A stretch of 64,000 nt of DNA from a virus: IMG/VR virus record IMGVR_UViG_3300030339_000006; one strand, written 5' to 3'. The number at the start of each line of letters is the position of its first letter. Positions within the stretch are counted from its first letter, which is position 1. Shown here piece after piece: positions 7,364 through 22,052 of the stretch. A program made the translations under genes and the position numbers. The notes below the pieces were generated by a model. The model saw nothing but the letters and a program-made list of their open reading frames with translations, had not been told where the DNA came from and did not search any database.

Positions 7364-7368
7364 AATTT

Positions 7369-7457
<89 letters not shown>

Positions 7458-7532
7458 GGGGATGTAGTTTAATTGGTAGAACGTCTGCCTTGCACGCAGA
7501 AAACGAGGGTTCAAATCCCTACTTCTCCACCA
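7458..7532 (+). tRNA. tRNA-Ala(UGC)
   Basis: G3-U70, CT-TGC-AC loop, CCA. Confidence 0.9.
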
Positions 7533-7572
7533 CTTCGATAGAGTCCTGGCTCTCTAAAACCGGGAGAATTTT

Positions 7573-7649
7573 GGGGCTATAGTTTCAAACGGATAAAATA
7601 CCCGCCTGTCACGCGGGAGATCCGGGTTCGATCCCCGGTAGCCTCGCCA
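7573..7649 (+). tRNA. tRNA-Asp(GUC)
   Basis: CT-GTC-AC loop, GCCA end. Confidence 0.9.
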
Positions 7650-7655
7650 TACAAT

Positions 7656-7743
7656 GGACCGATAGTTTAACGAGCCAGAGCTCGAAGGGAAACGCCCAGG
7701 CGCCAAATCTGGGAGGTGAGGTGAAAGTCCTCAGAGTCCGCCA
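7656..7743 (+). ncRNA. atypical tRNA-like RNA with hairpin inserted in D-loop
   Basis: GTTT/AAAC D stem enclosing CGAGC-CAGA-GCTCG, CCCAG/CTGGG arm, TGAGG/CCTCA T arm, GCCA end. Confidence 0.6.
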
Positions 7744-7746
7744 AAC

Positions 7747-7827
7747 ATACCTATCGTCTAACTAGGACGCTGCTGTAGCCGCATGTGCTTCAGGGAAATG
7801 CAGGTTAGACTCCTGCTGGGTATACCA
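7747..7827 (+). ncRNA. tRNA-like RNA with non-canonical anticodon arm
   Basis: ATACCTA/TGGGTAT acceptor, GCAGG-TTAGACT-CCTGC T arm, ACCA. Confidence 0.65.
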
Positions 7828-7829
7828 CT

Positions 7830-7918
7830 GGAAGATTGGCTGAGCCGGTCGAAAGCAGCAGATTGCTAATCTGTAGATCCCCTGGGGTCCGTGGGTTCGA
7901 ATCCCACATCTTCCTCCA
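7830..7918 (+). tRNA. tRNA-Ser(GCU)
   Basis: TT-GCT-AA loop, long variable arm, CCA. Confidence 0.9.
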
Positions 7919-7980
7919 CACTAAGTTACTTTCTGAAATACCCCTTCCTCGTAAAATTCATTCAAGTAATGGAGGTTTCC

Positions 7981-8283
7981 ATGCGTGAATGGCTTATAAA
8001 ACTCTTAGGAGGAATTGTGGACGAAAAACCTGTAAGTGAACTGACCCCGATCGTTGACTCAGCCCCGGCTGACGTACCTGCACCGGTAACGGACTTCGAT
8101 AAAGTGAAGTCAGTCCTGGTACTGATCGACGCCGGTATCGACGAAGCCTATGATGACGCTCTGGCAATCGCCCAGAAAGTCGGTGGCGACGTGCAAGGCA
8201 AGCTCAAGGTGTTCCTGAACGTAGCCGGTTATGCCGTCCCTGCGTTTGACGACATCGTGGCTTTCATCAAGAAGCACGGTTAA
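7981..8283 (+). CDS. hypothetical protein
   Basis: GGAGG RBS, followed by terminator. Confidence 0.65.
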   Translation: MREWLIKLLGGIVDEKPVSELTPIVDSAPADVPAPVTDFDKVKSVLVLIDAGIDEAYDDALAIAQKVGGDVQGKLKVFLNVAGYAVPAFDDIVAFIKKHG

Positions 8284-8285
8284 GA

Positions 8286-8309
8286 AAAGGCTCCTCACGG
8301 GGCCTTTTT
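8286..8309 (+). terminator. rho-independent terminator
   Basis: AAAAGGCTCC-TCAC-GGGGCCTTTTT. Confidence 0.7.
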
Positions 8310-8343
8310 CATGTTATCCTCCTGATTCACACAGGAGATCACC

Positions 8344-8766
8344 ATGTTAATCATTTCTGCATTCCCGGGAACGGGTAAATCCTACTTCCACGAGAAGTTC
8401 CCTCACGTCGCCGACTCAGATTCGAGCCAGTTCGACAAACGTTACTTCCCAAGCAACTATCTCACCCACATTCAGAATCGCTACGAACGCGGTCTGTGCA
8501 CCTTCGTGTCCAGTCATGAAGCTGTCCGTAAGTCGATCATTTCGTCAGGCCTTCCTTTCATGCTGGTGTACCCGGCCAAGGAATGCAAAGCGGAATACCT
8601 GGAACGTTACCGTCTTCGTGGTTCCCCACAGGCCTTCATCGATCTGATCGACGCCAACTGGGACGCGTGGCTGGATGGCTGTGCCGCTGAACAGGCAGAA
8701 CACGTTGTGCTTAAGCCTGGCCAGTACCTCAGCGACGTCATCCAGTGGGGCTTCAGTTTGAAATAA
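8344..8766 (+). CDS. P-loop nucleotide kinase-like protein
   Basis: N-terminal ISAFPGTGKS Walker A; R..LRG lid. Confidence 0.75.
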   Translation: MLIISAFPGTGKSYFHEKFPHVADSDSSQFDKRYFPSNYLTHIQNRYERGLCTFVSSHEAVRKSIISSGLPFMLVYPAKECKAEYLERYRLRGSPQAFIDLIDANWDAWLDGCAAEQAEHVVLKPGQYLSDVIQWGFSLK

Positions 8767-8779
8767 AAGAGTGTCTCCT

Positions 8780-8787
8780 GGTATAAG
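8780..8787 (+). promoter_or_regulatory. GGTATAAG phage promoter motif
   Basis: GGTATAAGTAAGGTACAC. Confidence 0.65.
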
Positions 8788-8812
8788 TAAGGTACACAAC
8801 CAGGAGATCTTC

Positions 8813-9079
8813 ATGAAACTCACTCTGAAACAAAAAGGCCTTCGCCAATTCACCGTCCTGTTCCACCGTAAGAACGTCCACTCTTTCTATCTGCCGGAAG
8901 ACGAATCGCTGGCCTACGACCGTATCTACCAGATTCTCGATGAGACCGCCCCAACGCAGGACCCGGTAGACTTCTTCGATGGCATGCATGACGCCGGCAA
9001 CTCCCTGTTCCGGGCCTTCCGGGATAGACATCCGACGTCGTTCTACTGCGGGGCGGTGTGTCTCACTCTGGAGAAGTAG
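8813..9079 (+). CDS. hypothetical protein
   Basis: AGGAG RBS; ends in TAG. Confidence 0.6.
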   Translation: MKLTLKQKGLRQFTVLFHRKNVHSFYLPEDESLAYDRIYQILDETAPTQDPVDFFDGMHDAGNSLFRAFRDRHPTSFYCGAVCLTLEK

Positions 9080-9080
9080 T

Positions 9081-9587
9081 ATGCTCGAACACCTGCTTAG
9101 TCGTCACTATGACCCCGCTCGTTACCCGACGCAGTGGATCACCGACAACCAACTCGTCGTTCCGCTCTTTGATTTCATCGGGCGGCTTCGTGGCTGCCTG
9201 ACCTACACCCGAGATGCCCCGAAGGAGCACGAGAATCCCCGCTTGAAGCGGTATCTTCCTCGAGCACCGGCAGGGTATCAACCCCTCTGGGGTACTGAAC
9301 TCCCGGTGAAAACCGGAGTCGTTTTCCTGACGGAATCCATCTTCAAGTCCGCTTCGCTGCACGCCCTGGGGTATGACTCGTGGGCGGTCTGTTCGTCGGC
9401 CCTGTCGGATCCTCTCTACCAGCAGCTCATGACCCTGCCCTACCAGTTCGTCTGTCTGGGCGACGATGATAAAGCCGGTCGGGAGCTTGCCCGCTCGTTA
9501 AAGTACGGCGCCACCTCAAGGGACTTGGATGAGTTGACCGTCCCGGAGCGTCTGGCGGTGATAAAACAATTTGACTTCCTTTTTTGA
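9081..9587 (+). CDS. minimal TOPRIM-domain (DnaG primase-like) protein
   Basis: VVPLFD..G.L.G, KRY, FLTESIF, GDDDKAG, DLDE. Confidence 0.75.
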   Translation: MLEHLLSRHYDPARYPTQWITDNQLVVPLFDFIGRLRGCLTYTRDAPKEHENPRLKRYLPRAPAGYQPLWGTELPVKTGVVFLTESIFKSASLHALGYDSWAVCSSALSDPLYQQLMTLPYQFVCLGDDDKAGRELARSLKYGATSRDLDELTVPERLAVIKQFDFLF

Positions 9588-9599
9588 TTCCCTTAAACT
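9571..9599 (+). promoter_or_regulatory. sigma70-like promoter for tRNA cluster
   Basis: TTGACT-17-TAAACT immediately before tRNA-Tyr. Confidence 0.65.
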
Positions 9600-9608
9600 T
9601 CAGTCACT

Positions 9609-9690
9609 GGGGGATTGGCAGAGCGGTCGAATGCGCCTGACTGTAAATCAGGTATCCCACACGGTGGTTCAAATCCATCATCCCCCACCA
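9609..9690 (+). tRNA. tRNA-Tyr(GUA)
   Basis: CT-GTA-AA loop, ACCA. Confidence 0.9.
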
Positions 9691-9691
9691 T

Positions 9692-9766
9692 TGGAGTGTA
9701 GCCAAGCGGAAAGGCACTGGTCTCTGAAGCCGGTATGCGGTGGTTCGATCCCACCCACTCCAGCCA
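9692..9766 (+). tRNA. tRNA-Gln(CUG)
   Basis: U1-A72, CT-CTG-AA loop, GCCA. Confidence 0.9.
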
Positions 9767-9768
9767 TC

Positions 9769-9854
9769 GCAGGAATGATGGAAAGTAGACATAGGCATCG
9801 TCGGATGTCTTGCCGGTTGGCATTGGGAGGTTAGAGTCCTCTCTTCCTGCACCA
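9769..9854 (+). ncRNA. tRNA-Leu-like RNA with anticodon loop replaced by tetraloop
   Basis: GCAGGAA/TTCCTGC, AGGCATC-GTCG-GATGTCT, TGCC/GGCA variable arm, T arm, ACCA. Confidence 0.7.
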
Positions 9855-9858
9855 CTTT

Positions 9859-9939
9859 TGAAGAAGATAGTCGGACTGGTTGCACCAGGCGGAAAATTAG
9901 CAGACATTGGGTTCGAGTCCCTACTTGCTATCTTCTTCA
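9859..9939 (+). ncRNA. long-stem RNA carrying a T-loop arm
   Basis: TGAAGAAGATAG/CTATCTTCTTCA 12-bp stem enclosing GGG-TTCGAGT-CCC. Confidence 0.55.
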
Positions 9940-9948
9940 CCTAACGAT

Positions 9949-10023
9949 TGGGGTTTAGTTTAGTTGGTAAAACACCGGGCTTTGATCCCGGTATCGGGGG
10001 TTCGATCCCCTCAACCCCTGCCA
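9949..10023 (+). tRNA. tRNA-Gln(UUG)
   Basis: CT-TTG-AT loop, GCCA. Confidence 0.9.
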
Positions 10024-10032
10024 CGAGGATTT

Positions 10033-10227
10033 ATGATAATCTCCCTAACCATCTTCATTTTATCGTTCATCGCTATACTTGCGGCTATCTCTGCAGGTAC
10101 TTACTTTGGTATGAAGCACCAAGGATGTACTCCTCAGCAGGCTCATGTTGCGACCAAGATCGTACTGTATTCTGTGGCGATTACTTTCATGCTCATCAAC
10201 CAGTTAGGCCCTATCCACATACTGTGA
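10033..10227 (+). CDS. small membrane protein
   Basis: Two hydrophobic segments, GAGG RBS. Confidence 0.55.
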   Translation: MIISLTIFILSFIAILAAISAGTYFGMKHQGCTPQQAHVATKIVLYSVAITFMLINQLGPIHIL

Positions 10228-10234
10228 GGTTCTT

Positions 10235-10432
10235 ATGGCTATCGTCGGTTTCATCATCTGCTTTATCTTCAGTTTGATCATCACTCTCGTCCTCCCTTTC
10301 TTCTGCGTCATCGGTGCTGCCTTCAGTGGTAAATCCGGAGAAGGCTGGTGGGCCCTTGTACCATTCGCCATCGGGTGCGGTTTACTCTACCTGACTATCG
10401 CTAATTCTCCGTTCCATATCGCCATCTCGTAA
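10235..10432 (+). CDS. small membrane protein
   Basis: Two hydrophobic segments, GAGG RBS. Confidence 0.6.
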   Translation: MAIVGFIICFIFSLIITLVLPFFCVIGAAFSGKSGEGWWALVPFAIGCGLLYLTIANSPFHIAIS

Positions 10433-10433
10433 T

Positions 10434-10441
10434 GGTATAAG
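10434..10441 (+). promoter_or_regulatory. GGTATAAG phage promoter motif
   Basis: GGTATAAGTAATGTGAG. Confidence 0.6.
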
Positions 10442-10451
10442 TAATGTGAGA

Positions 10452-10524
10452 AAGACAAGTAGCTCAACTGGTTAGAGCATAATCATACCCGATTAGTGTT
10501 GGGGGTTCGAGTCCCCCCTGTCTT
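10452..10524 (+). ncRNA. tRNA-like RNA / pseudo-tRNA with 6-nt anticodon loop, no CCA
   Basis: Canonical D arm and T arm; TAATC-ATACCC-GATTA. Confidence 0.65.
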
Positions 10525-10555
10525 AGCTTTAAAATCTCCCTATTAGGAGAACTTC

Positions 10556-11332
10556 ATGGAAAAAGAATCTGGCTTCATCATGACCGCCCTCGGTGGCCAC
10601 GCCCTGCAGAACATCGCCGGGGCGAAACTCGTTAAATCAAAAAGCTTTATCACGGATACCGCCAAGCATTTGACTGCTGGAGCACTGGGGCGTAATGGCC
10701 GTAATGGTACTCTGAAGGAAGGCTTGAAGACGGCAGTGACCAGTGTCGGTGTGCCGGAAGCGGTAATGGCTCACAACCGTGCGTATGCTGCAGGACAGGG
10801 ATTACACCATCGAGCCAAAGCTCTCGGGGTTAACCTGGAGAATCTTGGTCGTCGTGACGTCGCGAAAATGCGAATGGCAGCAGAAGGCCGTCTTCCGGAG
10901 AAACACCGCACACCTCTCACGGACCGAGCTCGAGATCTCTTGAAGGGTAATCACCTTCCGAAGAAGACGTTGAAGGCCGGGCACATTAAGGAGATTATGA
11001 AGCGTCCTGCAGGTAACCTTAAGCCCCACAGCACCAAGGCAATCGTCGCTGGGAACGCCGTAGCGTCGGTAGCAGAACCGGGAATCGGGGTGTTAAACGC
11101 CGCTAAGTTTGCGACGGAGCACAAGGGCTTCCAGAAAACCCGAGTGGGTAAATACATCGAGCACAACTTCGTGCACAAACCGTTGACCGACGCCTTTAAG
11201 AAAGGTGCGACAGGCCAGGCGGTGAATAAGGCGAAGGAGTTGGGCTACAAATATGGCGTCAACGGGGCCGTTGGTGAAGCAATCTCACAGGCTCATAAGG
11301 CCGGGGCTAAAGCAGTCGGGAGAGTAAAATGA
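10556..11332 (+). CDS. basic Gly/Ala/Lys-rich protein, putative internal virion protein
   Basis: Composition shared with 12254-14867 and 19400; starts MEKESG. Confidence 0.6.
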
Positions 11333-11384
11333 CAGGCATCGGGATTATCGCAGTAGCCATCATCATCGTCTGGTGGTGGAATCG

Positions 11385-11531
11385 ATGAGCTACGAACATA
11401 AACGTGGTGACATCAAGGAGAGCGCCGTAAAGGCGCTACTCTTCGACCCTCTTTTTAGACAGCGAATTGTGGTGGCTAAGAAGGGGAAGGGGTCCTATCG
11501 CCGTGTCAAAGCGGCAAAGGCTTACCCATAA
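11385..11531 (+). CDS. arfA: alternative ribosome rescue factor A (48 aa)
   Basis: Hand-translated [40 protein letters not shown] matches ArfA signature DPLFRQR...KKGKGSY.R. Confidence 0.9.
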
Positions 11532-11682
11532 ACTTCGTGATCTTCGGCGGCTTGAATCCTACGGTCGCCTTAACCTTTTCAACCAGCTGACTCACTGAGC
11601 CCTGGCGGATCGCCTTCGGTCCCGGGATCACCGAGTTCGAAGCGACATTGTAATTCTGCGTGTAACGTGCGGGATTAATCAT
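11506..11682 (-). CDS. small hypothetical protein (58 aa), convergent with arfA
   Basis: GGAGG RBS; [23 protein letters not shown]... Confidence 0.5.
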
Positions 11683-11747
11683 AGCGTACCTCCAAATTGA
11701 TTTTACCCTGCCGTCAGTGTATAGTCGAGTAAAACAGGAGGCCTCCT

Positions 11748-12254
11748 ATGCTGCAACACATGCTCGTCACTGGATTCGAATGCTCTAACGTCGCCAATCC
11801 AGAAACCGTCACCAAAATCACTGACTTCTCTTCAGCATCCGCCTGCACCGATGCCCTACTCGCTGTCCTGGCTGAAAAGCCCGGCAACTTCGTGTCTGTC
11901 TACATCGAGCTGTACAAAGAGTTAGAAAACGCCCATCCCTGGGACGAAATCATCATTCGCTACGCCTTTACCGGCGACCCCAATATCCTGATGTGCTCCA
12001 TCATGGATTACGAGGGGGTGAGCCTCACCCAGGGTTTCTTCATCAGCATCAACCGGGAGACGAGAAAACTCGGTGGATTACGCTCAGATGGACGTTCTGA
12101 CGACGACGCGAAGGACGAAGTGATTAAAATCATCAAGGAATACGGAATGCACATCGACAGCGGAGTCCGCTGGAGTGCCTTCCTGCTGCATCAGTATCTG
12201 AGCGGCAACCTCGATAATTACTTCTCAGAAGAACGCTACATGGAGATCCACTAA
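11748..12254 (+). CDS. hypothetical protein
   Basis: AGGAGG RBS. Confidence 0.7.
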   Translation: MLQHMLVTGFECSNVANPETVTKITDFSSASACTDALLAVLAEKPGNFVSVYIELYKELENAHPWDEIIIRYAFTGDPNILMCSIMDYEGVSLTQGFFISINRETRKLGGLRSDGRSDDDAKDEVIKIIKEYGMHIDSGVRWSAFLLHQYLSGNLDNYFSEERYMEIH

Positions 12255-13912
12255 TGACTGAGACCACCAAGACTCTTCACCAACGTGTGTCGAGCCTGAT
12301 CAAGAACCCGAAGCGTGTCAAGGGTGTGATCAAAGAAGCCGGCGTGCGTTTCGTACCGCCATCCCATTACCTTAAAGGTAAGAACGTTGCTGAGGCAGCG
12401 GAAAAGATCAAACAACTAAAAGCCCCGAAAGGGCTCAACGGAGAGACGCCAGTGCCTGGAGCATCTAAGTTTTTCAAAGAAGCAAGCCTGCTTGATACCG
12501 CTCGCGGTCTGATCAAAGCGGCCAAAGATGAAGCGGCCAAGGGTGCTGCAGCCGGTGCCGCTATCGGTGCGGCGAGTACGGCCGGCAAGATTTACAACGG
12601 CAAGCGCATTCTTGAACGCGGTGCAACGGCCCGTGGCGGTGTAGCGAATCCTAAGACGATCGCCCGCCTGGCCAAGACTAAGCTGAAACGCTCCATCCCA
12701 GGGATTGCCGGGGCAGCCGCTATCGGTGCCGCCGCCGGAGCTGCGATCAAAGGAATGAAGAAGGAAGCCAGTATCGCATCCACTGCTAACCGTGCCGGGC
12801 GTGCGGTAGAAGCCTTCAAGGCTCGTACTAAGATGAAACCGGTCTTCGAAATGGCTGACGTGAAGGGTAAAGCGAAGGCGGCCCTGAAGAAAGCTGTCGT
12901 TCCTGCTGCTGTCCTGGCCGGTGGCGTTGCTGTCACTAAGAAGAACGAGAGCATGAAGAAGGAAGCTTCTGAACTCGTGATGAAAGATGGCAAGAAGTAC
13001 CGTAAAGGTACCGTTGCATCTGCGGCGAATAAGGTCGGTACTGCCGGTGCCGTTCTCGGTGCCATAAAGGGTAAGGGTATCAAGCAGATTGCCAAGGGTG
13101 CTCTGAGTGGTTCCGTTCTCGGCGGTGGCTACGGTACTCTGCGTGGGGCCAACCGTATCCGTAAGGGTGAGATCTCTCTGGATAAGAAGGAAATGTCCCA
13201 GCTGACCAAGAAGGCGGCGGAGAAGTTGACCCACAAGGGTGTGACTTACCGTCGTGGTACCGTCGGTTCTGCCGCTAAGAAAATGGCAGTCGGCGGTGCA
13301 GCTCTCGGTGCTGGTGTAGGTATGGCAGGTATGGGCCCTGCCGGTGGCGCCATGGCCGTCCCGGGAGCTGCTCAGGGTGCCGTTACCGGGGCGCTGTACG
13401 GCCTGGCCCGCGGTGTCCTGCGTGCTCAGAAGGGTGAGCGCTCAATGGCTCCGGCCGAGTTTGACCGTTTGAAACACCGTCTGACCAAGGAGGCGGCGGA
13501 GTTGATAATTCGCGACGGGAAAAAGTACCGTAAGGGCAACGATGCTTCTGCAACGGCCTTAATGGGGGGTATCAATGCCACCCTTGCAGTTCCTAACGCG
13601 GTTAAAACTGTGCAGCAACACCGTACAGCGGGGATTAAGGTCCCTACTAAAGCAATAGCGAAATACCTCGGAGCGGCTACTGCTGCTGGGGCTGCAACGG
13701 GTTACATCTACTCCAAGGTCCGTGGAATCGGTCGTGATCGTCGAGGCGAAACCTCTGTATCCCACACTCGTTTCCAAGAGCTGAAGAAGAAAGCGGAACT
13801 CTCCGTCGGTGACAAGGGTACCGAAGAGATGAAGAAGGTTGTTAAATCCGGTGGTAAATCAGGCAAGATGGCCCAAATGAAAGGGTCTGATAAAGGTCCT
13901 AAGGGGGCATAA
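12254..13912 (+). CDS. Gly/Ala/Lys-rich modular polyprotein with repeated K-[EK]-A junctions
   Basis: KEAG, KEAS, KKEAS x2, KKAAE, KEAAE, KKAE; three ~90-aa G.Y R.G...RG..R.G E.S repeats. Confidence 0.75.
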   Translation: MTETTKTLHQRVSSLIKNPKRVKGVIKEAGVRFVPPSHYLKGKNVAEAAEKIKQLKAPKGLNGETPVPGASKFFKEASLLDTARGLIKAAKDEAAKGAAAGAAIGAASTAGKIYNGKRILERGATARGGVANPKTIARLAKTKLKRSIPGIAGAAAIGAAAGAAIKGMKKEASIASTANRAGRAVEAFKARTKMKPVFEMADVKGKAKAALKKAVVPAAVLAGGVAVTKKNESMKKEASELVMKDGKKYRKGTVASAANKVGTAGAVLGAIKGKGIKQIAKGALSGSVLGGGYGTLRGANRIRKGEISLDKKEMSQLTKKAAEKLTHKGVTYRRGTVGSAAKKMAVGGAALGAGVGMAGMGPAGGAMAVPGAAQGAVTGALYGLARGVLRAQKGERSMAPAEFDRLKHRLTKEAAELIIRDGKKYRKGNDASATALMGGINATLAVPNAVKTVQQHRTAGIKVPTKAIAKYLGAATAAGAATGYIYSKVRGIGRDRRGETSVSHTRFQELKKKAELSVGDKGTEEMKKVVKSGGKSGKMAQMKGSDKGPKGA

Positions 13913-14550: not shown

Positions 14551-14867
14551 GTCTATACGATATTGCCCTAGGTATCCTCAAAGAGGCCGCCAATATCGAG
14601 GAGTTGAAAAAACAGCGGGATAAAGGACGGGGTAAGATTCTCGGCAGTGCCGCTACTATGGGCATTCTCCCCGCAGTAATTGGCACTCAGGTGGCAGCGT
14701 ATGATGTGGGTCTGAAGAAACTACCGAGCCGGGAGGGCATAAAGGCCATTGCCCGTCACGGTAAAGGTTCTGCCAAGATGATGGGGAAATACATAGCCCC
14801 GATGGCAGGGGCAGCCACCCTTATCAACGAAGCTCGTTATCATATCCGTAAGCGTAAAGCTGATTGA
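14547..14867 (+). CDS. Gly/Ala/Lys-rich protein with KEAA motif
   Basis: LKEAAN then amphipathic module. Confidence 0.6.
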   Translation: MSLYDIALGILKEAANIEELKKQRDKGRGKILGSAATMGILPAVIGTQVAAYDVGLKKLPSREGIKAIARHGKGSAKMMGKYIAPMAGAATLINEARYHIRKRKAD

Positions 14868-14920
14868 TCTTGTAAAAGGTTAGCCCTTGGTTCATACTGA
14901 GGGCTCAACCTGGAGAACCT

Positions 14921-15148
14921 ATGAAAGACCAACACACTCTGATTAAGGGCTACCGCGACCTCACAGCGGACGACATCGAGCAGATGAACCAGATCAAGTC
15001 AGCCGGTAACGCACTGGGTGCCCTGATTGAAGCACTGCAGGAACTGGACGGCTTCGACCAACGCTTCATCGCACTGGGCAAGAGCGACATTCAGAAAGGC
15101 CTGGCGATGGTCATCCGCGGTATCGCACAACCGTCGACCTTCTGCTAA
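14921..15148 (+). CDS. acb2: anti-CBASS sponge Acb2-like protein
   Basis: QH..IKGYRDL...I..MN.IK...R..A.GK.DIQ.G....IR.IAQP..F. Confidence 0.85.
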   Translation: MKDQHTLIKGYRDLTADDIEQMNQIKSAGNALGALIEALQELDGFDQRFIALGKSDIQKGLAMVIRGIAQPSTFC

Positions 15149-15467
15149 TGGAGTGGTGGATGGTGTGCAACCTGATTCTCGCTGTCGGTATTCTCCTTAT
15201 GATGATCTACAGCGATCTGATGGAGGCCAACATCAAGTATCGCCAGACCGGAGACAGCACTCCGATCAAAGAAGAAGTCGTTTGGTGGGCATTCCTCATC
15301 ATACTGTTTAGCTAAGGCCCTCCGGGGCCTTTTTTGGAGCTATCATGACCCTTACCTGGACACTGGCGATCATCGCCTTGATAATTATTTTGATCATCAT
15401 AATCGGCTATCCACAAGTCTTTCTCATCATCGGGGATATCCTTTCCATCTTTTTTGATTAAAACCTG

Positions 15468-15496
15468 TTGACAGTTTTGAGTGGGTTAGTTAAAGT
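15468..15496 (+). promoter_or_regulatory. sigma70-like promoter for tRNA cluster
   Basis: TTGACA-17-TAAAGT, inverted repeat over -10. Confidence 0.7.
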
Positions 15497-15666
15497 TAAC
15501 CCATCGCTCCCCGGTAGCTGGGAGCCTAAATGTTGAGGAGCCCAGTACGTGGACCTTCTCTGATAAGCTGCTAGACAGGGTTTGTAATCGAGGTTTTCTG
15601 CTTTTCCCTTGGTTAATTTTTCCCATATCGTCAGTAGCCCCGCTGATGTCGAAAGAGGGGCTTTAT

Positions 15667-15742
15667 GGTTCTGTAGCTCAGCGGTTAGAGCGCTCGCCTG
15701 TTAAGCGAGGGGTCGGTGGTTCGAATCCACCCAGTTCCGCCA
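15667..15742 (+). tRNA. tRNA-Asn(GUU)
   Basis: CT-GTT-AA loop, GCCA; two U-U pairs in acceptor. Confidence 0.85.
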
Positions 15743-15801
15743 ATTTAGGAGGATCGATGTTAACATCAGAACAGTGTCGATCTTACGAGAAGTTTTGTGT
15801 A

Positions 15802-15886
15802 GGGGCGGTGGCGAAATTGGTAGACGCACCGGATTTAGGTTCCGACGGGGAAACCCGTGAGAGTTCGAGTCTCTCCCGCCCCACCA
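15802..15886 (+). tRNA. tRNA-Leu(UAG)
   Basis: TT-TAG-GT loop, variable arm, ACCA. Confidence 0.9.
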
Positions 15887-15968
15887 GAGTTCATATGGCT
15901 ACATACCTTTGCGTCCGAACCTCGCCAGAGGTCGAGTCTACTCTGTCGGTGTGGCGCCATATGAATTC
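15887..15968 (+). ncRNA. long-stem structured RNA between tRNAs
   Basis: GAGTTCATATGGC/GCCATATGAATTC 13-bp stem with internal hairpins. Confidence 0.5.
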
Positions 15969-15971
15969 TTC

Positions 15972-16047
15972 GCCTTTATAGCTCAGTTGGTAGAGCAACC
16001 GCCTTGTAAGCGGTAGGTCCTGGGTTCGAAGCCTAGTGAGGGCACCA
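15972..16047 (+). tRNA. tRNA-Thr(UGU)
   Basis: CT-TGT-AA loop, ACCA. Confidence 0.9.
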
Positions 16048-16049
16048 AT

Positions 16050-16124
16050 GCATCCCAAGTGTTGATGGTGGCACGACGTCCTTCCAAGTCGTAGGGACCG
16101 GTTCGAGACCGGTGGGTTGCTCCA
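16050..16124 (+). tRNA. tRNA-Gly(UCC)
   Basis: CT-TCC-AA loop, U73 CCA. Confidence 0.85.
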
Positions 16125-16135
16125 ATTGAGGACTT

Positions 16136-16309
16136 ATGGATAATATCCGTTCGTTTTGTAAGTTAGTCTTGATCACTCTGTTCGTGGCCGGATTCATAGC
16201 GATGGTCTACGCGGTGATCGGAACCGTCCTACTCGTAGGGGTTCTTGCAGTATGCGTCATAGCTTTTTTAGCTCTCGTTAAACAGACCTGGAAGGATATG
16301 AAGCGGTAG
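16136..16309 (+). CDS. small membrane protein (57 aa)
   Basis: GAGG RBS; hand-translated, highly hydrophobic. Confidence 0.5.
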   Translation: MDNIRSFCKLVLITLFVAGFIAMVYAVIGTVLLVGVLAVCVIAFLALVKQTWKDMKR

Positions 16310-16380
16310 TGTAGCTCAGTCGGTAGAGCGGCTCCCTCATAAGGAGTAGGCCGGTGGATCGTGCCCACCCATTACCACCA
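16305..16380 (+). tRNA. tRNA-CAU (elongator Met or Ile2)
   Basis: CT-CAT-AA loop, atypical ATCGTGC T-loop, ACCA. Confidence 0.8.
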
Positions 16381-16482
16381 TTTTGATGCAGTCGGTAGTC
16401 CCGGAGGTGATCAAAATCTTGATGGTCATAATTGACAAGCCATTCCGTCACGCCGTGAGGCACCACGAGAATGACGAACTAT

Positions 16483-16559
16483 AGCGGGGTAGAGCAGTCA
16501 GGTAGCTTGCTAGGCTCATAACCTAGAGGTCGGTGGTTCAAATCCATCCCCCGCTTCCA
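16483..16559 (+). tRNA. initiator-like tRNA-Met(CAU)
   Basis: AGCGGGG start, A11-U24, CT-CAT-AA, TTCAAAT T-loop. Confidence 0.85.
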
Positions 16560-16562
16560 ATC

Positions 16563-16723
16563 GGGTAGAAGTTTCCACCGCGGCCGTGGCGTTCCGGAGC
16601 AAAACGGCGGTAGGTTCCTTAGGAGGTTCAGGAAACACTTTCAGGATTAGAGACTGAGTAGGCCGGCCGGCTGGAAGGTTGATAGACTGAGAGATCGGGG
16701 TTCGAATCCCCTTCTACTCGCCA
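16563..16723 (+). ncRNA. 161-nt tRNA-scaffold RNA with expanded D and anticodon arms
   Basis: GGGTAGA/TCTACTC acceptor, GTTTCC/GGAAAC, CTTTCAG/CTGAGAG, GGGG-TTCGAAT-CCCC, GCCA. Confidence 0.7.
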
Positions 16724-16754
16724 CACCAATGCATCCTTCCGAGGGCTCATTGGT

Positions 16755-16829
16755 GTGGTCGTATCATAATGCTAATGATCCTCCCTGTGAAGGAGGCCTA
16801 TGCGAGTTCACGCCTCGTCGACCACCCCA
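16755..16829 (+). tRNA. tRNA-His(GUG)
   Basis: CT-GTG-AA loop, C73 CCA; no encoded G-1. Confidence 0.85.
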
Positions 16830-16979
16830 AGTATCCCAGGTGATACTTTTCTTAAGGTTTCACCTCTTTTAGTAACCCCGGAGGCACTATGCGATCAGAG
16901 AGTATTGCTAAAATGATGAAGCTCGCGGAACGTATCAATGAGATCGTTGCCGAGATGGAAGTTCGTAAGGCGGCTTACC

Positions 16980-17177
16980 TTGAAACCTTACGGTCTTAAA
17001 CCCGGCGGTTCTCCCGGTTGCTCCTGTCGCGGTTGTCGTACCCGCGGGGTTCGGGAAGACCAAGTCATCCTCGTAGCGAAAGCGTTCGCTCGAAGAGAGG
17101 GTAAACGCGAAGCACGAACATGGCGGGCTGGCAGAGTGTCTATGCACTGGATTGCAAATCCAGATTACGAAGGTTAG
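16980..17177 (+). CDS. small basic Cys-containing protein (MKPYG...)
   Basis: TTG start inferred; CSCRGC, KAFARREGK; 3' end overlaps tRNA-Cys. Confidence 0.35.
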   Translation: MKPYGLKPGGSPGCSCRGCRTRGVREDQVILVAKAFARREGKREARTWRAGRVSMHWIANPDYEG

Positions 17178-17196
17178 AATCCTTCGCCTGTCTCCA
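17122..17196 (+). tRNA. tRNA-Cys(GCA)
   Basis: TT-GCA-AA loop, U73 CCA. Confidence 0.9.
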
Positions 17197-17203
17197 AATA
17201 AGC

Positions 17204-17232
17204 TTGACCCATCAGCACATTTATCGTACTAT
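17204..17232 (+). promoter_or_regulatory. sigma70-like promoter before tRNA-Trp
   Basis: TTGACC-17-TACTAT. Confidence 0.6.
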
Positions 17233-17241
17233 CTCCTCAAC

Positions 17242-17317
17242 GGGGGCTTGTTCTAGCGGCTACGATGCTGGCCTCCAAAACCATGCGACGAAGGTTCGAG
17301 TCCTTCAGCCCCTGCCA
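17242..17317 (+). tRNA. tRNA-Trp(CCA)
   Basis: CT-CCA-AA loop, GCCA. Confidence 0.8.
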
Positions 17318-17326
17318 GGAGATACG

Positions 17327-17659
17327 ATGAAACTTGTCATTTTAGAATCACCCTTTGCCCCGACGAACGGGAAGACCCTCGACGAAAACATCGCGTACGC
17401 ACGTGCCTGTGTCCGTCACTCCCTGTCCCTCGGTGAGGCACCAATCGCCAGTCACTTACTGTACACCCAAGAAGGTATCCTCGACGACTTCATTCCTGAA
17501 GAGCGTGCGTGGGGTATCGAAGCCGGTTTAGCCTGGAAGCAGGTCGCCAACGGTTCCGTCGTGTACGTCGATTTCGGCGTCTCGAAGGGGATGGAATATG
17601 GCATTCAAGCAGCCATTGCAGCCGGCCTTTCTGTAGAATACCGGAGGATTTATGCTTAA
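17327..17659 (+). CDS. nucleoside 2-deoxyribosyltransferase-like (DUF4406-related) protein
   Basis: ILESPFA, NIAYARAC, GEAPIASHLLY, VYVDFGVSKGM. Confidence 0.65.
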   Translation: MKLVILESPFAPTNGKTLDENIAYARACVRHSLSLGEAPIASHLLYTQEGILDDFIPEERAWGIEAGLAWKQVANGSVVYVDFGVSKGMEYGIQAAIAAGLSVEYRRIYA

Positions 17660-17825
17660 GTACGCTGATCTGCTCCACACCGCTGGCTTGATCACCGACG
17701 CGTTCCACGCTGACCTGCACGCTGCAGTCAAGGATCGCTCCCTGTTTCTTCTGCTGGCACTGAAACTGCTCGACGTAATCCGTCGTGTTCTTTCCAACCT
17801 GCACTCTCAGAAGGTAACCGCATGA
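17652..17825 (+). CDS. small hypothetical protein
   Basis: GGAGG RBS, coupled stop/start. Confidence 0.5.
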   Translation: MLKYADLLHTAGLITDAFHADLHAAVKDRSLFLLLALKLLDVIRRVLSNLHSQKVTA

Positions 17826-18004
17826 ACATCGAAGACCTCGTTAAATTTAAACAGATCGCCCGCCGCCTGCACACCCGTGGCGTGATCTCCCAGAACCTGT
17901 GCCTACGGATTCTCGGCCTGAAAGAACCGAAGTACCGCGTTCAGTCCTGGCTGATCTCTGCAGGATTTGCCCTGTGCAAACTCGCTCTGAAGCACTCGAA
18001 ATGA
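17822..18004 (+). CDS. small hypothetical protein
   Basis: ATGA overlaps on both sides. Confidence 0.55.
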   Translation: MNIEDLVKFKQIARRLHTRGVISQNLCLRILGLKEPKYRVQSWLISAGFALCKLALKHSK

Positions 18005-18294
18005 AGTATACCCGTAAGCCGTACGCAGTGGATGCTGTCCAGTTCAACGGACAGAATCACCTGAATATCTTCGAAGACTACTGGCCGGACTGGATCCACC
18101 ATGCCATAGCCTGCGGTGATGTACAGCTCTGCGGGGATTACTTTGAACTCTGGCGACCGGACCACACTTCCTGGGATCGCTTCGGGTTGGGCTGCTGGAT
18201 CGTTCTGGACGACGGCGCCATTATTGGCGTCACCGCCGAAGAATTCTACCGGAGATACGATCGTGTCTACAATCGAAACGCCGATAATCGATAG
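18001..18294 (+). CDS. conserved phage protein (MKY.RKP..V.AVQF family)
   Basis: MKYTRKPYAVDAVQFNG...G.WIV...F...Y. Confidence 0.6.
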   Translation: MKYTRKPYAVDAVQFNGQNHLNIFEDYWPDWIHHAIACGDVQLCGDYFELWRPDHTSWDRFGLGCWIVLDDGAIIGVTAEEFYRRYDRVYNRNADNR

Positions 18295-18517
18295 CGTATA
18301 TACAATCAAAGTGACCCGAATCAAGGACTGGCATGCCCGTCTGTTCTTAAACGGGTTGCTGGTCGATGAAATGTCGTGTAAACTCCGTAGTGATATCGGA
18401 TGGATCTGCCGTGAGATGATGCGGTGGGCCGATAAAATGGGAGGTGATAGTCATACCTCCAGTGCTCGCAGACGCCAAGGCCAAGCTGTGGGTAAAGTGA
18501 AATACCTGAGGAAATAA
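18263..18517 (+). CDS. hypothetical protein
   Basis: GTG start after GGAG; coupled. Confidence 0.5.
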   Translation: MSTIETPIIDSVYTIKVTRIKDWHARLFLNGLLVDEMSCKLRSDIGWICREMMRWADKMGGDSHTSSARRRQGQAVGKVKYLRK

Positions 18518-18519
18518 CC

Positions 18520-18858
18520 ATGTTATAGACCAAACACTGGACCTACACGTTCGTTCGTACTGATCTGCCGCTCGAGCAGATTCTCGTTCAATCCAACCAC
18601 GCTTCCCACGAAGCCGCCCTGAAGTACCCCTACACCTCTGCTGAACCTAACTCGCTGATCGTCATTGGCGTGAAGAACCGTGCTGCCCTCGAAAAGGCCA
18701 TGGCCCGCTTCGCTGCGTTCGACCCAACCCCTTTCTACGAGCCCGACTGGGAGTACGGCCTGACCGCCTTCACCACCCGTCCAGTGACCGAAGAAGAGCG
18801 TGCTGAATTCCGTAAGTATCAACTCTTCCGGAGGTCACATGTACGCAACCAATTTTGA
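18520..18858 (+). CDS. Pth2-like peptidyl-tRNA hydrolase with in-frame UAG at codon 3
   Basis: GAGG RBS, ATG-TTA-TAG then open frame YTFVRTDL...VQSNHA...LIVIGV...FYEPD...LTA. Confidence 0.75.
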
Positions 18859-19372
18859 TGACCTTCAGACCCGGATGGCCGCCACTGAGCAGACCGCCGG
18901 CGTCTCCGTTCTGGAACACGGCCACAGCGTCCACCAGCGGTACCAGGAGCTCCTTCGGGAGCTCAACCAAGGCAAGGGCAACCCGACACTCCAGAAGGTC
19001 TGGGAGAGCGTTAGAGAGCGTCTGATGGACCCCGATCTGATCTGGCGGTATCAGGTGTATCACGACTGTGGCAAACCGGCCTGTGCCCAGGACGGACACT
19101 TCCCAGATCACGCAGAGCACTCAGCGAATCAGTGGGCCCTACTCTTCCCGGAAGACCCGGTCGTCGCTGACTTGATGCGGATGGACATGCAGTTCCACTT
19201 GACGAACGCCGAGGACGCCCGGTCCTTCTGGGCACACCCGCTGGCCCCGACCCTCTACGTCACAGCCTGGGCGGAGATTCTGTCAAATGCCAGCATGTTC
19301 GGCGGAGAAGACTCCACGTCCTTCAAGATTAAGCGTAAGAAGTTAGAGCGTGCCGGGCGGGCGCTGTGGTAA
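18839..19372 (+). CDS. HD-domain phosphohydrolase
   Basis: EHG..V, YHDCGKP, HAEHSA; GGAGG RBS. Confidence 0.75.
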   Translation: MYATNFDDLQTRMAATEQTAGVSVLEHGHSVHQRYQELLRELNQGKGNPTLQKVWESVRERLMDPDLIWRYQVYHDCGKPACAQDGHFPDHAEHSANQWALLFPEDPVVADLMRMDMQFHLTNAEDARSFWAHPLAPTLYVTAWAEILSNASMFGGEDSTSFKIKRKKLERAGRALW

Positions 19373-19399
19373 AATCCTGGTATTCACAGGAGAATTATC

Positions 19400-20080
19400 A
19401 TGGTCGAAAAGAGAGACAATTTTGAAAAAGGCGTAATTGGAGCCGTCGGGGGCACTGCTGCAGCCTCCGGAGTGGCACCTCGCTTGCTGGGGTATCACGT
19501 GGTCCGCCACGGCACGAGCAACGAGAACGCCGCAAAGATCAAGAAGGAAGGGTTTAACCCTAAGATGGGTGGCAAGGGTGGGGCGGGACAGCACGCGGCG
19601 ACAGGTGACCGAGCGAAGAGGTTTAAGGAACAATCCCGAGGGAAGATTCACGTAACGAAAAACCCTTTGATCTCCCGTATGTTCGCCGGGATAACGGAGA
19701 AGCGTAATCCTAATCCCGAATCTCTCGGTGACTTGGCCGGTGGTAAGGTTCTGAAAGCCCGCGTTACTGATCAACATTACCGAACCATGCAGAAAGACCC
19801 TCACATGGGTGGCGGCAAGGCCACTGCAGCGACGACTCACCACAAGATTCCCTCACATCAGATTATCGGTGGGGCGGGGGATAAGGGGGTCAAAGGTGTA
19901 GTTAATAAGAAGACGTTGGCGAAATACTACCGCAATAAGACGAATCACGGTCGTATCGGCAGAGGTATAGCTCTCGCGGGAGTCGCTGCCACCGGTGCTC
20001 ACCAGGTCTATCAGTCCGTGAAGGAAGGATTGACCAAGAAGTCAGGATTGCAGATCCGGGCAGAAAGTTTGCTCCGGTAA
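19400..20080 (+). CDS. ART/Tpt1-fold-like protein with Gly/Ala-rich flanks (paralog of 13912)
   Basis: LLGY..V.HGTS...IKKEGF, GKIHVT, KIPSHQI. Confidence 0.6.
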   Translation: MVEKRDNFEKGVIGAVGGTAAASGVAPRLLGYHVVRHGTSNENAAKIKKEGFNPKMGGKGGAGQHAATGDRAKRFKEQSRGKIHVTKNPLISRMFAGITEKRNPNPESLGDLAGGKVLKARVTDQHYRTMQKDPHMGGGKATAATTHHKIPSHQIIGGAGDKGVKGVVNKKTLAKYYRNKTNHGRIGRGIALAGVAATGAHQVYQSVKEGLTKKSGLQIRAESLLR

Positions 20081-20109
20081 TTGACAGGTCAAGGACGACC
20101 TGATATCTT
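20081..20109 (+). promoter_or_regulatory. sigma70-like promoter driving suppressor tRNA
   Basis: TTGACA-17-TATCTT. Confidence 0.7.
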
Positions 20110-20117
20110 ACAGACAT

Positions 20118-20193
20118 GCCTGAGTAGCTGAGCGGTTGTAGCGGGAGCCTCTAAAACTCTGATACGTCGGTTCGAATCCGACCTCGGGCACCA
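20118..20193 (+). tRNA. amber suppressor tRNA (anticodon CUA)
   Basis: GCCTGAG/CTCGGGC acceptor, GGAGC-CT-CTA-AA-ACTCT, GTCGG-TTCGAAT-CCGAC, ACCA. Confidence 0.85.
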
Positions 20194-20194
20194 C

Positions 20195-20288
20195 TGATGT
20201 GTAGCTTAACGTAAAAGTGCTACGGAATCGGGGACTACCCCCTTTGACAATGGCGGATGTCCGGCACGTAAACCGGACCACATCACCA
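20195..20288 (+). ncRNA. tRNA-like RNA lacking canonical anticodon loop
   Basis: GATGTG/CACATC acceptor, GTCCGG/CCGGAC T-like arm, GGGG-ACTA-CCCC hairpin, ACCA. Confidence 0.6.
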
Positions 20289-20290
20289 CC

Positions 20291-20366
20291 GGGTGCATAG
20301 CTCAGTTGGCAGAGCGGCGGACTCTTAATCCGTAGGTCGTAGGTTCGAACCCTACTGCACCCACCA
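20291..20366 (+). tRNA. tRNA-Lys(CUU)
   Basis: CT-CTT-AA loop, ACCA. Confidence 0.92.
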
Positions 20367-20426
20367 CTTCCCCTTTTGCGAATTCCTTGGTATAATAGAC
20401 ATACCGTCCATACCAGGAGTTTTTCC

Positions 20427-21591: not shown

Positions 21592-21655
21592 GTACATTCT
21601 TGCTGTGGCTTAGCCTGCAGAAACACCCTAAACCTTTACTCAATAAGGAAACACC

Positions 21656-22047: not shown

Positions 22048-22052
22048 AATAG

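Follow-up and report, generated by a model that had tools for sequence, protein, structure and literature searches.

Why would a phage keep RNAs that have the outline of a tRNA and nothing with which to read a codon? The question is raised by the window analyzed here, a 64,000-nucleotide stretch of viral DNA (IMG/VR record IMGVR_UViG_3300030339_000006) from a large, Arash-like phage, in which such elements are interspersed with ordinary tRNA genes.

tRNA-shaped elements in a phage tRNA array

ARAGORN detected 22 canonical tRNAs at 7287-22323 of the window and one more at 36844, in agreement with the count of about 23 normal tRNAs in an initial annotation of this DNA. The six tRNA-shaped elements claimed there (A to E and X6) were all recovered in place on the + strand, which is the tRNA strand, with E starting at 20196 instead of 20195. 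A seventh element, C2, had not been listed. The elements and the predicted promoters near them are as follows:

7656 to 7743, + strand: module A, a cloverleaf RNA derived from tRNA-Asp (covariation; collinearity with the adjacent tRNA-Asp)
7747 to 7827, + strand: module B, tRNA-shaped, with no stable anticodon arm (fold; geometric scan)
9571 to 9599, + strand: predicted promoter of sigma-70-like type (TTGACT-17-TAAACT), preceding the Tyr-Gln-C-C2-Gln unit
9769 to 9854, + strand: module C, compact and tRNA-shaped (fold; geometric scan; weak, sub-threshold tRNA-Sec match)
9860 to 9941, + strand: module C2 (fold z = -2.85)
10435 to 10444, + strand: GTATAAGTAA promoter-like motif, 8 nt upstream of X6
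10452 to 10525, + strand: X6, tRNA-shaped, lacking CCA, its "anticodon" loop 6 nt long (ARAGORN tRNA-???; Rfam tRNA model)
16563 to 16723, + strand: module D, a 161-nt tRNA-like RNA (fold; homologues; compensatory pairs)
20081 to 20109, + strand: predicted promoter of sigma-70-like type (TTGACA-17-TATCTT), preceding the suppressor tRNA-E-tRNA-Lys unit
20196 to 20289, + strand: module E, a single unit of the E family (fold; 17-unit alignment)

Two units at least, Tyr-Gln-C-C2-Gln and suppressor-E-Lys, thus begin behind a sigma-70-like promoter. Modules are separated from their flanking tRNAs by 1-6 nt, as real tRNAs are, and elsewhere in the same arrays tRNAs adjoin without any spacer (gaps of 0-5 nt). 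The array also contains conserved spacers, G1 and H1, that are not tRNA-like, and single D, K and N members have a mutated CCA. The region also has genes that bear on translation conflict and counter-defense: those for an ArfA homologue and for an Acb2/Tad1-hairpin protein and, in Salmonella phage Arash, the nearest cultured relative, those for RNA ligases and a peptidyl-tRNA hydrolase.

The part that the modules retain in common is the acceptor/T-arm helix, mostly together with an RCCA tail. Module A has a terminal helix of only 4 bp (GGAC/GUCC) followed by conserved mismatches, a D stem, a D loop with an extra hairpin, a T-like arm with a 5-bp stem and the loop UGAAAGU, and a GCCA end. Module B combines a 7-bp acceptor, a 3-5-bp D stem and a 5-bp T stem with the loop UUAGACU and ACCA. 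Module C (fold z = -2.5) has a 7-bp acceptor, a 5-6-bp T stem with the loop UUAGAGU, ACCA, and a second short hairpin at the position of the variable arm, while C2 is closed by an 11-12-bp terminal stem and has a GGG-UUCGAGU-CCC T-like arm and a 3' end of ACC, with no CCA. In module D, an 8-9-bp acceptor, a canonical GGGG-UUCGAAU-CCCC T arm and GCCA enclose a large, branched body that replaces the D and anticodon arms. Module E has a 6-bp acceptor (GAUGUG/CACAUC) followed by A and CCA (an ACCA end), a 4-bp D-like hairpin with the loop AACGUAA, and a T-like hairpin whose non-canonical 8-nt loop contains ACGUAA. The claim that five elements keep an acceptor stem, a T-like arm and an encoded CCA holds for the copies in the window, but A has a helix of just 4 bp and most E1 and E2 units of relatives are missing CCA.

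Searches with tRNA models, a check that had been proposed in advance, separated X6 from the others. No Rfam family was reached by A, B, C, D or E even when short-range scans admitted matches at E<=10, and none of the five matched the tRNA model RF00005 (gathering threshold, 29 bits) at that level; the best Rfam match among them was that of C to tRNA-Sec, at 22.6 bits and below the cut-off of 47. X6 was the sole element of the six to pass RF00005, with 38 bits. ARAGORN reported no tmRNA; D scored 8.1 bits against the tmRNA model in a match confined to the T loop and a weak, sub-threshold 15.2 bits against the mascRNA model. A strict geometric scan (7/7 acceptor pairs, 5/5 T-stem pairs, a 7-nt loop and NCCA) gave 22 matches in the window, comprising 18 tRNAs, B, C and two others, compared with 1.85 matches per 64 kb of simulated sequence.

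At the anticodon position, none of the six elements combines U33 and a conserved anticodon in a 7-nt loop. Module A has a 5-bp stem and a 9-nt loop, replaced in relatives by a 6-bp stem and the 6-nt loop GUCCAA; C has a hairpin of 7 bp closed by a 4-nt loop; B has 30 nt that fold into no stable structure; and B, D and E lack any anticodon-like loop. As had been claimed for the element at 10452, ARAGORN returned X6 as tRNA-??? with a 6-nt loop and without CCA. Since this position is taken by hairpins that are closed or by loops whose length varies, the modules cannot read codons. For X6 and its homologues, ARAGORN does report tRNAs whose anticodons have 2 or 4 bases, and the phage carries a true amber suppressor tRNA; both would suit decoding by unusual tRNAs, for instance frameshift suppressors whose anticodon loops have 6, 8 or 9 nt. 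However, the X6 loop ranges from 6 to 12 nt across relatives with an unconserved sequence, in which U33 is not kept and no triplet is either; X6 lacks CCA and sits in an mRNA leader; C has a tetraloop; and D and E have nothing that resembles an anticodon loop. A decoding role is thus extremely improbable.

Compensatory change and decay

The elements were compared across 11 related phage loci (designated L002, L003 and so on), among which the order of tRNAs and modules is kept even though a marker protein of this phage family is just 61-66% identical. Covariation was assessed in alignments of 11-17 homologues; for A, D and the E family, paired cells and a covariation score were compared with 500 shuffles. 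Module A was found in all 11 relatives and in three more metagenome contigs. Its alignment had 96.9% of cells paired compared with 87.4% after shuffling, and 0 of 500 shuffles were equally high. The mean pairwise identity of A (0.77) lies within the range of true tRNAs (0.68-0.95), the adjacent protein gene being at 0.69, and the window copy of A differs from that of L002 at 25% of bases with every helix kept. The E family, aligned as 17 units from nine genomes, had compensatory changes at 6/6 acceptor pairs and 96.8% of cells paired (76.7% shuffled), and module D had compensatory changes at 23 of 36 pairs and 94.4% of cells paired (74.3% shuffled); both exceeded 500/500 shuffles. X6 was present in 11/11 relatives, with covariation in its D, anticodon and T stems and compensatory changes at 6 of 13 pairs. 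Arash itself has A, X6, E1 and E2.

Although the stems of these modules vary, several of their loops show little or no change: A has GUCCAA, D has CCGG and GGCC, and E has AAYGUAA and ACGWAA. Such a pattern is expected of an RNA that binds a partner or adopts a tertiary fold, not of a mere spacer. Homologues of D occur in L006, L008, L010 and L011, and none was found in L001, L004, L005 or L009; where D is missing, its absence is clean and the flanking tRNAs are intact.

The remaining modules are restricted to the closest relatives. B is carried by just L002 and L003, at 96% identity and with no informative variation, so that decay is possible for B. C is likewise limited among the relatives to L002 and L003, and its central hairpin has undergone one compensatory double change, from U-A to C-G. 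C2 is 100% identical in L003 and missing from L002, again with no informative variation. B and C2 may be young or decaying.

These observations bear on whether the modules are neutral tRNA pseudogenes in mid-decay. Decay does occur in this lineage, since the tRNA-Asp of Arash has visibly lost its T arm while retaining its acceptor ends and CCA; B without a stable anticodon arm, the patchy C2 and the clear tRNA ancestry of A would fit such a history. Compensatory covariation nevertheless refutes neutrality for A, D, E and X6, which persist over deep divergence with many double substitutions and invariant loops, A being as conserved as functional tRNAs and keeping all helices in a window copy one-quarter diverged. 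As a general explanation, mid-decay is very unlikely. Collectively, these alignments support the conclusion that A, D, E and X6 are held by selection. Compensatory changes in related phages, the check named beforehand in the initial annotation, were found in all four, with one in C; its proposal of selection rather than decay was thus borne out for these elements but not for B.

Module A arose from the tRNA-Asp beside it, as a tandem copy that was then remodelled. Its covariance model matches real tRNAs end to end, the adjacent tRNA-Asp scoring 30 bits, and the alignment of A with that tRNA is collinear, with GUC aligned. The identity set of Escherichia coli AspRS consists of GUC, G73, G2:C71, C38 and G10 (PMC6523644). 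The consensus of A contains G73, G2:C71, G10 and GUC but not C38, its loop is 6 nt long, and the window's own copy has lost the GUC triplet. Because the consensus keeps G73, G2:C71, G10 and GUC, that form of A would imitate tRNA-Asp.

X6 and possible processing in cis

X6 is located in the 5' leader of a 258-aa virion-protein gene (10556-11332), flanked by a promoter-like motif and a ribosome-binding site. The GTATAAGTAA motif has 11 matches in the window compared with 1.3 expected, and the one upstream of X6 is kept in all relatives. X6 is most likely a processing or stabilizing signal, a tRNA-like element in an mRNA leader. Plant mitochondrial t-elements (PMC1920247) and the mascRNA of MALAT1 are comparable mRNA-embedded tRNA-like processing signals, and by that likeness RNase P or RNase Z could set transcript ends at X6. 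They belong to other organisms and have no homology to X6, whose cleavage is only predicted.

A similar role in cis might be extended to all the modules, as handles for RNase P and 3' trimming that separate tRNAs and mRNAs and whose released pieces are functionless. The acceptor/T-arm helix with an RCCA tail is a minimal RNase P substrate, and these RNase P determinants are the best-retained parts of the modules. The tRNA-like spacing of the modules, the placement of X6 and the analogy with t-elements agree with such punctuation, as do the conserved spacers G1 and H1. However, tRNAs adjoin directly elsewhere in the same arrays, making a spacer module superfluous for processing; in A, D and E, conservation is higher in the body loops than in the stems; and D is cleanly absent from some relatives with its flanking tRNAs intact. 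Punctuation alone is therefore an unlikely account of the modules.

Stable RNAs of T5 and T4 and a proposed role in trans

The closest known systems are the stable RNAs of other phage tRNA regions. The T5 record NC_005859 lists eight in its tRNA region (RNA1, RNA2, RNA3, RNAI, RNAIII, RNAIV, RNA2H and RNAX), annotated as of "unknown functions" and tRNA-like in three of the eight. As in the window, they are interspersed on the tRNA strand with about 24 tRNA genes, along with small ORFs and homing endonucleases. The long RNA1 and RNA2 resemble D in being tRNA-like with a canonical T arm; RNA3 (73 nt) resembles A and X6, with a 6-bp stem and a loop of 6 nt where the anticodon would be and with ACCA at its end; and RNAI is a stem structure with a GCCA end. 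The two tRNA regions also have a protein gene in common, T5.076 on the T5 side, to which window ORF 9081-9587 is 39% identical. The T5 RNAs differ in their parent tRNAs and body structures and are annotated as stable RNAs, whereas those of the window are predicted.

In T4, the small stable RNAs RNAC (species 1) and RNAD (species 2) lie at the end of the tRNA cluster. Of the two, RNAC is 139 nt long and shares the layout of D: a CCGGG-UUCGAAU-CCCGG arm adjoins its terminal stem, and its body is large and branched. Such RNAs number two in T4 and at least seven in the window, and the T4 genes as annotated lack an encoded CCA. The biological roles of RNAC and RNAD are still unknown (PMC3014915; PMC9697503). 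Searches of T5 and T4 by blastn with the window modules gave only T-loop-sized matches, and the covariance model of A matched only true tRNAs in both phages; the relation is therefore one of kind and not of orthology. The modules have the same-strand position in a phage tRNA array, adjoining tRNAs, and in A, C, D and E folds and covariation indicate a tRNA-like terminal helix with a non-tRNA body. By this analogy they are of the same long-known kind as the stable RNAs of T4 and T5, and their novelty is lowered, since that kind was already recorded in both tRNA regions.

YrlA and other bacterial Y RNAs (RF02553, with Ro60) are also non-decoding RNAs with a tRNA-like domain. The ends of the modules form an acceptor-like helix, whereas the 5' and 3' ends of YrlA sit in its Ro-binding stem. 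No window module matched YrlA in Rfam, and a TROVE/Ro60 gene (PF05731) was absent from Arash and from one complete 182.6-kb relative. YrlA's tRNA-like domain has been suggested to act as a competitive inhibitor of a tRNA nuclease (PMC7790460). Phage tRNAs are known to counter tRNA-targeting defenses (PMC10264068). Along these lines, the modules could be putative decoys that soak up tRNA-attacking effectors or tRNA-sensing triggers and so shield the real tRNAs, and the ArfA homologue, the Acb2/Tad1-hairpin protein and the Arash ligases and hydrolase would suit that setting. Mimics without an anticodon loop, however, cannot bait nucleases that read it; A, E and X6 show no fast turnover; and conservation across phages of many environments suits housekeeping as well as an arms race. 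We regard defense decoys as doubtful, and as one subset of trans action whose probability is not additional to it. The proposed roles as toxin decoys, synthetase or EF-Tu modulators, or aminoacyl donors are speculation.

The explanation that we favor, and consider reasonably probable, is that the modules, as part of the phage tRNA operons, encode small tRNA-shaped RNAs that do not decode, are stable and act in trans. The tRNA machinery would excise them from a polycistronic precursor, with RNase P generating the 5' end of each module and the next RNase P cut, followed by trimming to the encoded CCA, generating its 3' end. Recognition by RNase P is not assured in every case, since the terminal helix of A has only 4 Watson-Crick pairs and neither A nor E has a canonical T-like loop. 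Excised modules would accumulate as stable RNAs, by analogy with those of the T5 and T4 tRNA clusters. Action in trans on a tRNA-binding protein is favored but unproven; as look-alikes of the upper half of a tRNA, the modules would occupy such a protein of the host or the phage.

Non-decoding modules among the tRNA genes

The window (about 52% G+C) is part of a large phage. It had no close DNA relatives in the phage collection, where all matches were tRNA-sized, and its 1,192-aa lysozyme-containing protein shares 67% identity with a virion protein of Salmonella phage Arash, the nearest cultured relative. The + strand carries all 24 tRNA genes that ARAGORN identified, and 23 of these lie in several sub-clusters within 7287-22323. 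Among them are an amber suppressor and a "tRNA-???" whose loop is 6 nt long, and the canonical tRNAs were also supported by Rfam. When the gaps between tRNAs were read, all of the elements without a usable anticodon listed in the initial annotation were present within one base, together with a seventh (C2) absent from that list:

7656-7743, + strand: module A, terminal helix of 4 bp only, T-like arm, GCCA
7747-7827, + strand: module B, perfect 7-bp acceptor, D arm, 5-bp T stem with loop UUAGACU, ACCA
9769-9854, + strand: module C, compact fold (z = -2.5), tetraloop-capped hairpin at the anticodon position
9860-9941, + strand: module C2, the seventh element
10452-10525, + strand: X6, 38 bits on the Rfam tRNA model (passing), 6-nt loop, without CCA
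16563-16723, + strand: module D, 161 nt, 8-9-bp acceptor, canonical UUCGAAU arm, GCCA
20196-20289, + strand: module E, 6-bp acceptor, ACCA, non-canonical D-like and T-like hairpins

In the fold of module B, 30 poorly structured nt occupied the position of the anticodon arm. Gaps of 1 to 6 nt separated the modules from the CCA of the tRNA before them or the first base of the tRNA after them, and true tRNAs are packed in the same way. No Rfam family matched A to E at the gathering threshold or at E ≤ 10, in searches of the whole window and of short ranges, and a tmRNA reading of D was ruled out by both ARAGORN and Rfam. A relaxed geometric scan was too unspecific; the strict acceptor/T-arm/NCCA scan used in its place recovered 18 tRNAs, B, C and two further sites, against 1.85 hits per 64 kb in simulated control sequence.

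Distribution and covariation in relatives

Homologues of one virion-protein gene (10556-11332) gave access to ten metagenomic loci (L002 to L011) besides Arash (L001). Protein identity is 92 to 94% for the close relatives L002 and L003 and 61 to 66% for the others. Both tRNA order and the non-tRNA gaps were kept across relatives. Module A was present in 11 of 11 relatives and, by pattern search, in three more contigs; X6 was likewise present in all 11. E-type units occurred at all loci reaching that region, mostly as two in tandem and as three in L010. The Arash homologues lie at L001 13919-14012 (A), 16348-16421 (X6) and 26257-26461 (E1 and E2), and Arash also has the related modules N and P. 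Module D was found in four relatives and was cleanly absent from four, B and C were confined to L002 and L003, and C2 was found among relatives in L003 only. Relatives also hold modules that are missing from the window (F, N, P, Q and K, a 46-nt minihelix with a GCCA end), so that the window displays just a part of the phenomenon.

RNAalifold placed module A in a cloverleaf with compensatory changes in 10 of 24 pairs. In a counting test, 96.9% of its cells were paired versus 87.4% in shuffles (0/500 as high), and pairing was at most 53% once partners were slid. The corresponding values were 94.4% versus 74.3% for D, with 23 of 36 pairs compensatory among only five sequences, and 96.8% versus 76.7% for the 17 units of the E family, with double changes in all six acceptor pairs. 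X6 displayed compensatory changes in the D, anticodon and T stems; its loop ranged from 6 to 12 nt among relatives, and neither U33 nor a triplet was conserved. Comparison of C with its L002 and L003 homologues revealed one paired change, from U-A to C-G, in the central hairpin. Mean pairwise identity was 0.77 for A, compared with 0.68 to 0.95 for true tRNAs and 0.69 for the adjacent protein gene, and several loops of A, D and E were invariant despite variable stems. Covariation, the conservation of A and the invariant loops therefore lead us to reject neutral decay for A, D, E and X6. The proposal of the initial annotation that its six elements reflect selection rather than decay was thus borne out by covariation for these four; B and C2 may instead be products of neutral decay. 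Collectively, the modules form part of tRNA operons as conserved RNAs that are structured and do not decode.

Two structural candidates were set aside. An alternative, shorter acceptor pairing inside D (16656-16719), which gave the mascRNA-like match, was not found by eye in L006 or L008, and the long pairing form covaries. Co-variation between the D loop and T loop of the E family is not claimed, as it is inseparable from the split between the tandem paralogues E1 and E2.

Decay does occur in this lineage, and a clear case of a decaying tRNA lies beside the conserved module A in Arash, in a gene no longer called by ARAGORN:

L001 13851-13912: tRNA-Asp, T arm gone via a deletion of about 13 nt; acceptor strands, anticodon arm and GCCA kept

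Two further features of the shared array were recorded:

20118-20193: amber-suppressor tRNA(CUA), the most conserved of all array tRNAs (0.95 mean pairwise identity, 9 genomes)
L001 22354-22572, with the same position in L006, L007, L009 and L011: small ORF (Arash gp91) plus module P

The small ORF begins at the final base of tRNA-Thr and extends into P, a tRNA-like module with ACCA and a canonical T arm. In L004 and L005 only P is present, and the window has neither. X6 goes under tRNA-Asn in the Arash record, which also lists the amber suppressor under tRNA-Phe; both labels are of relevance for annotation. The Arash paper gives only "21 tRNAs" and is silent on non-decoding tRNA-like RNAs. 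A phage CCA-adding enzyme (PF01743) was not found in two complete relatives.

Origin of module A and neighboring elements

A covariance model of A scored its homologues at 94 to 114 bits and the window copy at 58 bits, followed by real tRNAs matched end to end; the tRNA-Asp immediately upstream was matched at 30 bits. The two aligned collinearly, with the UAGUUU/AAAAC D stem and the G73-CCA end in common. Relative to tRNA-Asp, module A has an extra hairpin within the D loop, broken acceptor pairs 5 to 7, and, in place of the T loop, a purine-rich loop whose first residue (U) and fifth (A) are kept; its anticodon loop has narrowed to 6 nt, and the triplet GUC remains there in register. This alignment points to a clear origin of module A from tRNA-Asp. 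The identity elements of Escherichia coli AspRS are GUC, G73, G2:C71, C38 and G10 (PMC6523644), and the consensus form of A keeps four of them. In the window's copy the loop differs, with 9 nt and no GUC, and every helix is nevertheless preserved. This copy is only 75% identical to that of L002, although the stretches compared of the flanking tRNA-Asp show no difference.

Sigma-70-like promoters were found 8 to 10 nt ahead of the first tRNA in several sub-clusters, and a second motif, GTATAAGTAA, occurred 11 times in the window versus 1.3 expected:

9571: sigma-70-like promoter ahead of Tyr-Gln-C-C2-Gln
20081: sigma-70-like promoter ahead of suppressor-E-Lys
8781, 10435, 27856, 33965, 37154 and 48379, among others: GTATAAGTAA sites

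In the cases inspected, GTATAAGTAA lay a short distance upstream of a ribosome-binding site, and it is probably a phage-specific promoter. X6 lies 8 nt 3' of GTATAAGTAA and 30 nt before the start codon of a gene with an Arash virion-protein homologue; X6 therefore belongs to an mRNA leader.

Four other elements of the array were also noted:

7533-7566: S1, 34-nt element directly 3' of tRNA-Ala, unique in the window
15887-15971: H1, long hairpin (fold z = -4.5) between tRNA-Leu and tRNA-Thr
16381-16482: G1, spacer of about 102 nt between both tRNA-Met(CAU) genes
16724-16755: hairpin with its 3' arm directly against G-1 of tRNA-His

S1 was conserved far above all of its surroundings, with 100% identity over 32 to 39 nt in eight of 11 relatives and a single mismatch in the remaining three. 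S1 does not fold stably, and in relatives it marks the edge of variable ORF insertions. With gaps, the consensus of module A aligned in its 5' half to S1, and for two A copies none of 500 shuffles reached the score. At the position of H1, most relatives have a spacer of about 85 nt with a shared AAATAAGCTTTT-like end, from which the window's end differs. G1 kept its length and most of its sequence in all relatives reaching this region; it has three predicted hairpins with little covariation, and neither tRNA-like features nor CCA. The position next to tRNA-His was filled in every relative by a hairpin of variable sequence and length (31 to 60 nt), also in L008, from which tRNA-His was missing.

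Stable RNAs of T5 and T4 and candidate roles

The reference record of phage T5 annotates eight misc_RNAs within its tRNA region: RNA1 and RNA2 ("tRNA-like stable RNA with unknown functions"), RNA3 ("putative tRNA-like RNA"), and RNAI, RNAIII, RNAIV, RNA2H and RNAX ("stable RNA with unknown functions"). Their predicted folds fell into the same classes as the modules of the window and its relatives. Long T5 tRNA-like RNAs with a canonical T arm resembled D; a 73-nt RNA that ends in ACCA and has a 6-nt loop on a 6-bp stem where the anticodon would lie resembled A and X6; and a stem RNA ending in GCCA resembled module F of relatives. Phage T4 encodes RNAC and RNAD beside its tRNAs, RNAC having a canonical T arm and a terminal stem. 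No sequence homology of the modules to these T5 and T4 RNAs was detected by blastn or with the covariance model of A. A YrlA/Ro60 reading was excluded, since the modules had no Rfam YrlA match, a TROVE gene was absent from Arash and a complete 182.6-kb relative, and the topology differs. T4- and T5-type stable tRNA-like RNAs have been on record for decades without an assigned function (PMC3014915; PMC9697503; T5 RefSeq annotation). Because the kind is already known from these phages, we class the window's RNAs as new members of a functionally unexplained kind.

Three protein-coding genes of the region bear on its ancestry and possible role:

9081-9587: Toprim/primase-like ORF, 168 aa, 39% identity to T5.076
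11385-11531: ArfA homologue, 48 aa, Pfam E = 5e-19
14921-15148: Acb2/Tad1 hairpin-domain protein, 75 aa, E = 7e-13

T5.076 lies in the T5 tRNA region beside tRNA-Ser(GCU), and the resemblance of the first ORF to it thus suggests that the tRNA regions of the window and T5 share ancestry. The other two genes lie between tRNA sub-clusters, and both are kept in relatives.

RNase P and the trimming machinery recognize a coaxial acceptor/T helix and an RCCA tail. Because the modules keep this helix and, mostly, the tail, we infer that they would be released by RNase P and 3' trimming, as are the neighboring tRNAs. They would then probably persist as stable RNAs, like their T5 and T4 counterparts. 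The strongest rival holds that the modules are processing handles only; however, other tRNAs of these arrays lie side by side with no spacer, and the body loops of the modules are conserved. Invariant loops on covarying stems are likely to be contact surfaces, judging from the alignments. We tentatively favor a role in trans in which the modules would act as look-alikes of tRNA for tRNA-binding proteins. A more specific form of this role in trans seems doubtful to us: the modules would be upper-half tRNA mimics, each tuned to one tRNA-handling protein, with A a non-translating look-alike of tRNA-Asp that AspRS may bind or charge, and the set would protect or reprogram the tRNA pool, for example by titrating acceptor-end-directed defense effectors or host tRNA enzymes. 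The putative anti-defense decoys suggested in the initial annotation are compatible with the neighborhood, given the nearby ArfA and Acb2/Tad1-hairpin genes and the RNA ligases and peptidyl-tRNA hydrolase of Arash.

The comparative data on the modules are unusually good. The Arash-like family supplies what T4 and T5 lacked, a dozen divergent genomes sharing one array, and their comparison yields base-pair-level structures of four RNA families and, for one of these, a clear origin from tRNA-Asp. With Salmonella phage Arash as a cultured member, RNA-end mapping and deletion are feasible. If the modules are only processing handles, they would account for the parsing of long phage tRNA-mRNA precursors. 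If they bind tRNA enzymes or defense effectors, they would add an RNA layer to phage tRNAs as counter-defense tools, and the tuned-mimic form, if true, would at last explain what the "stable RNAs" of T4 and T5, a class known for 50 years, are for.
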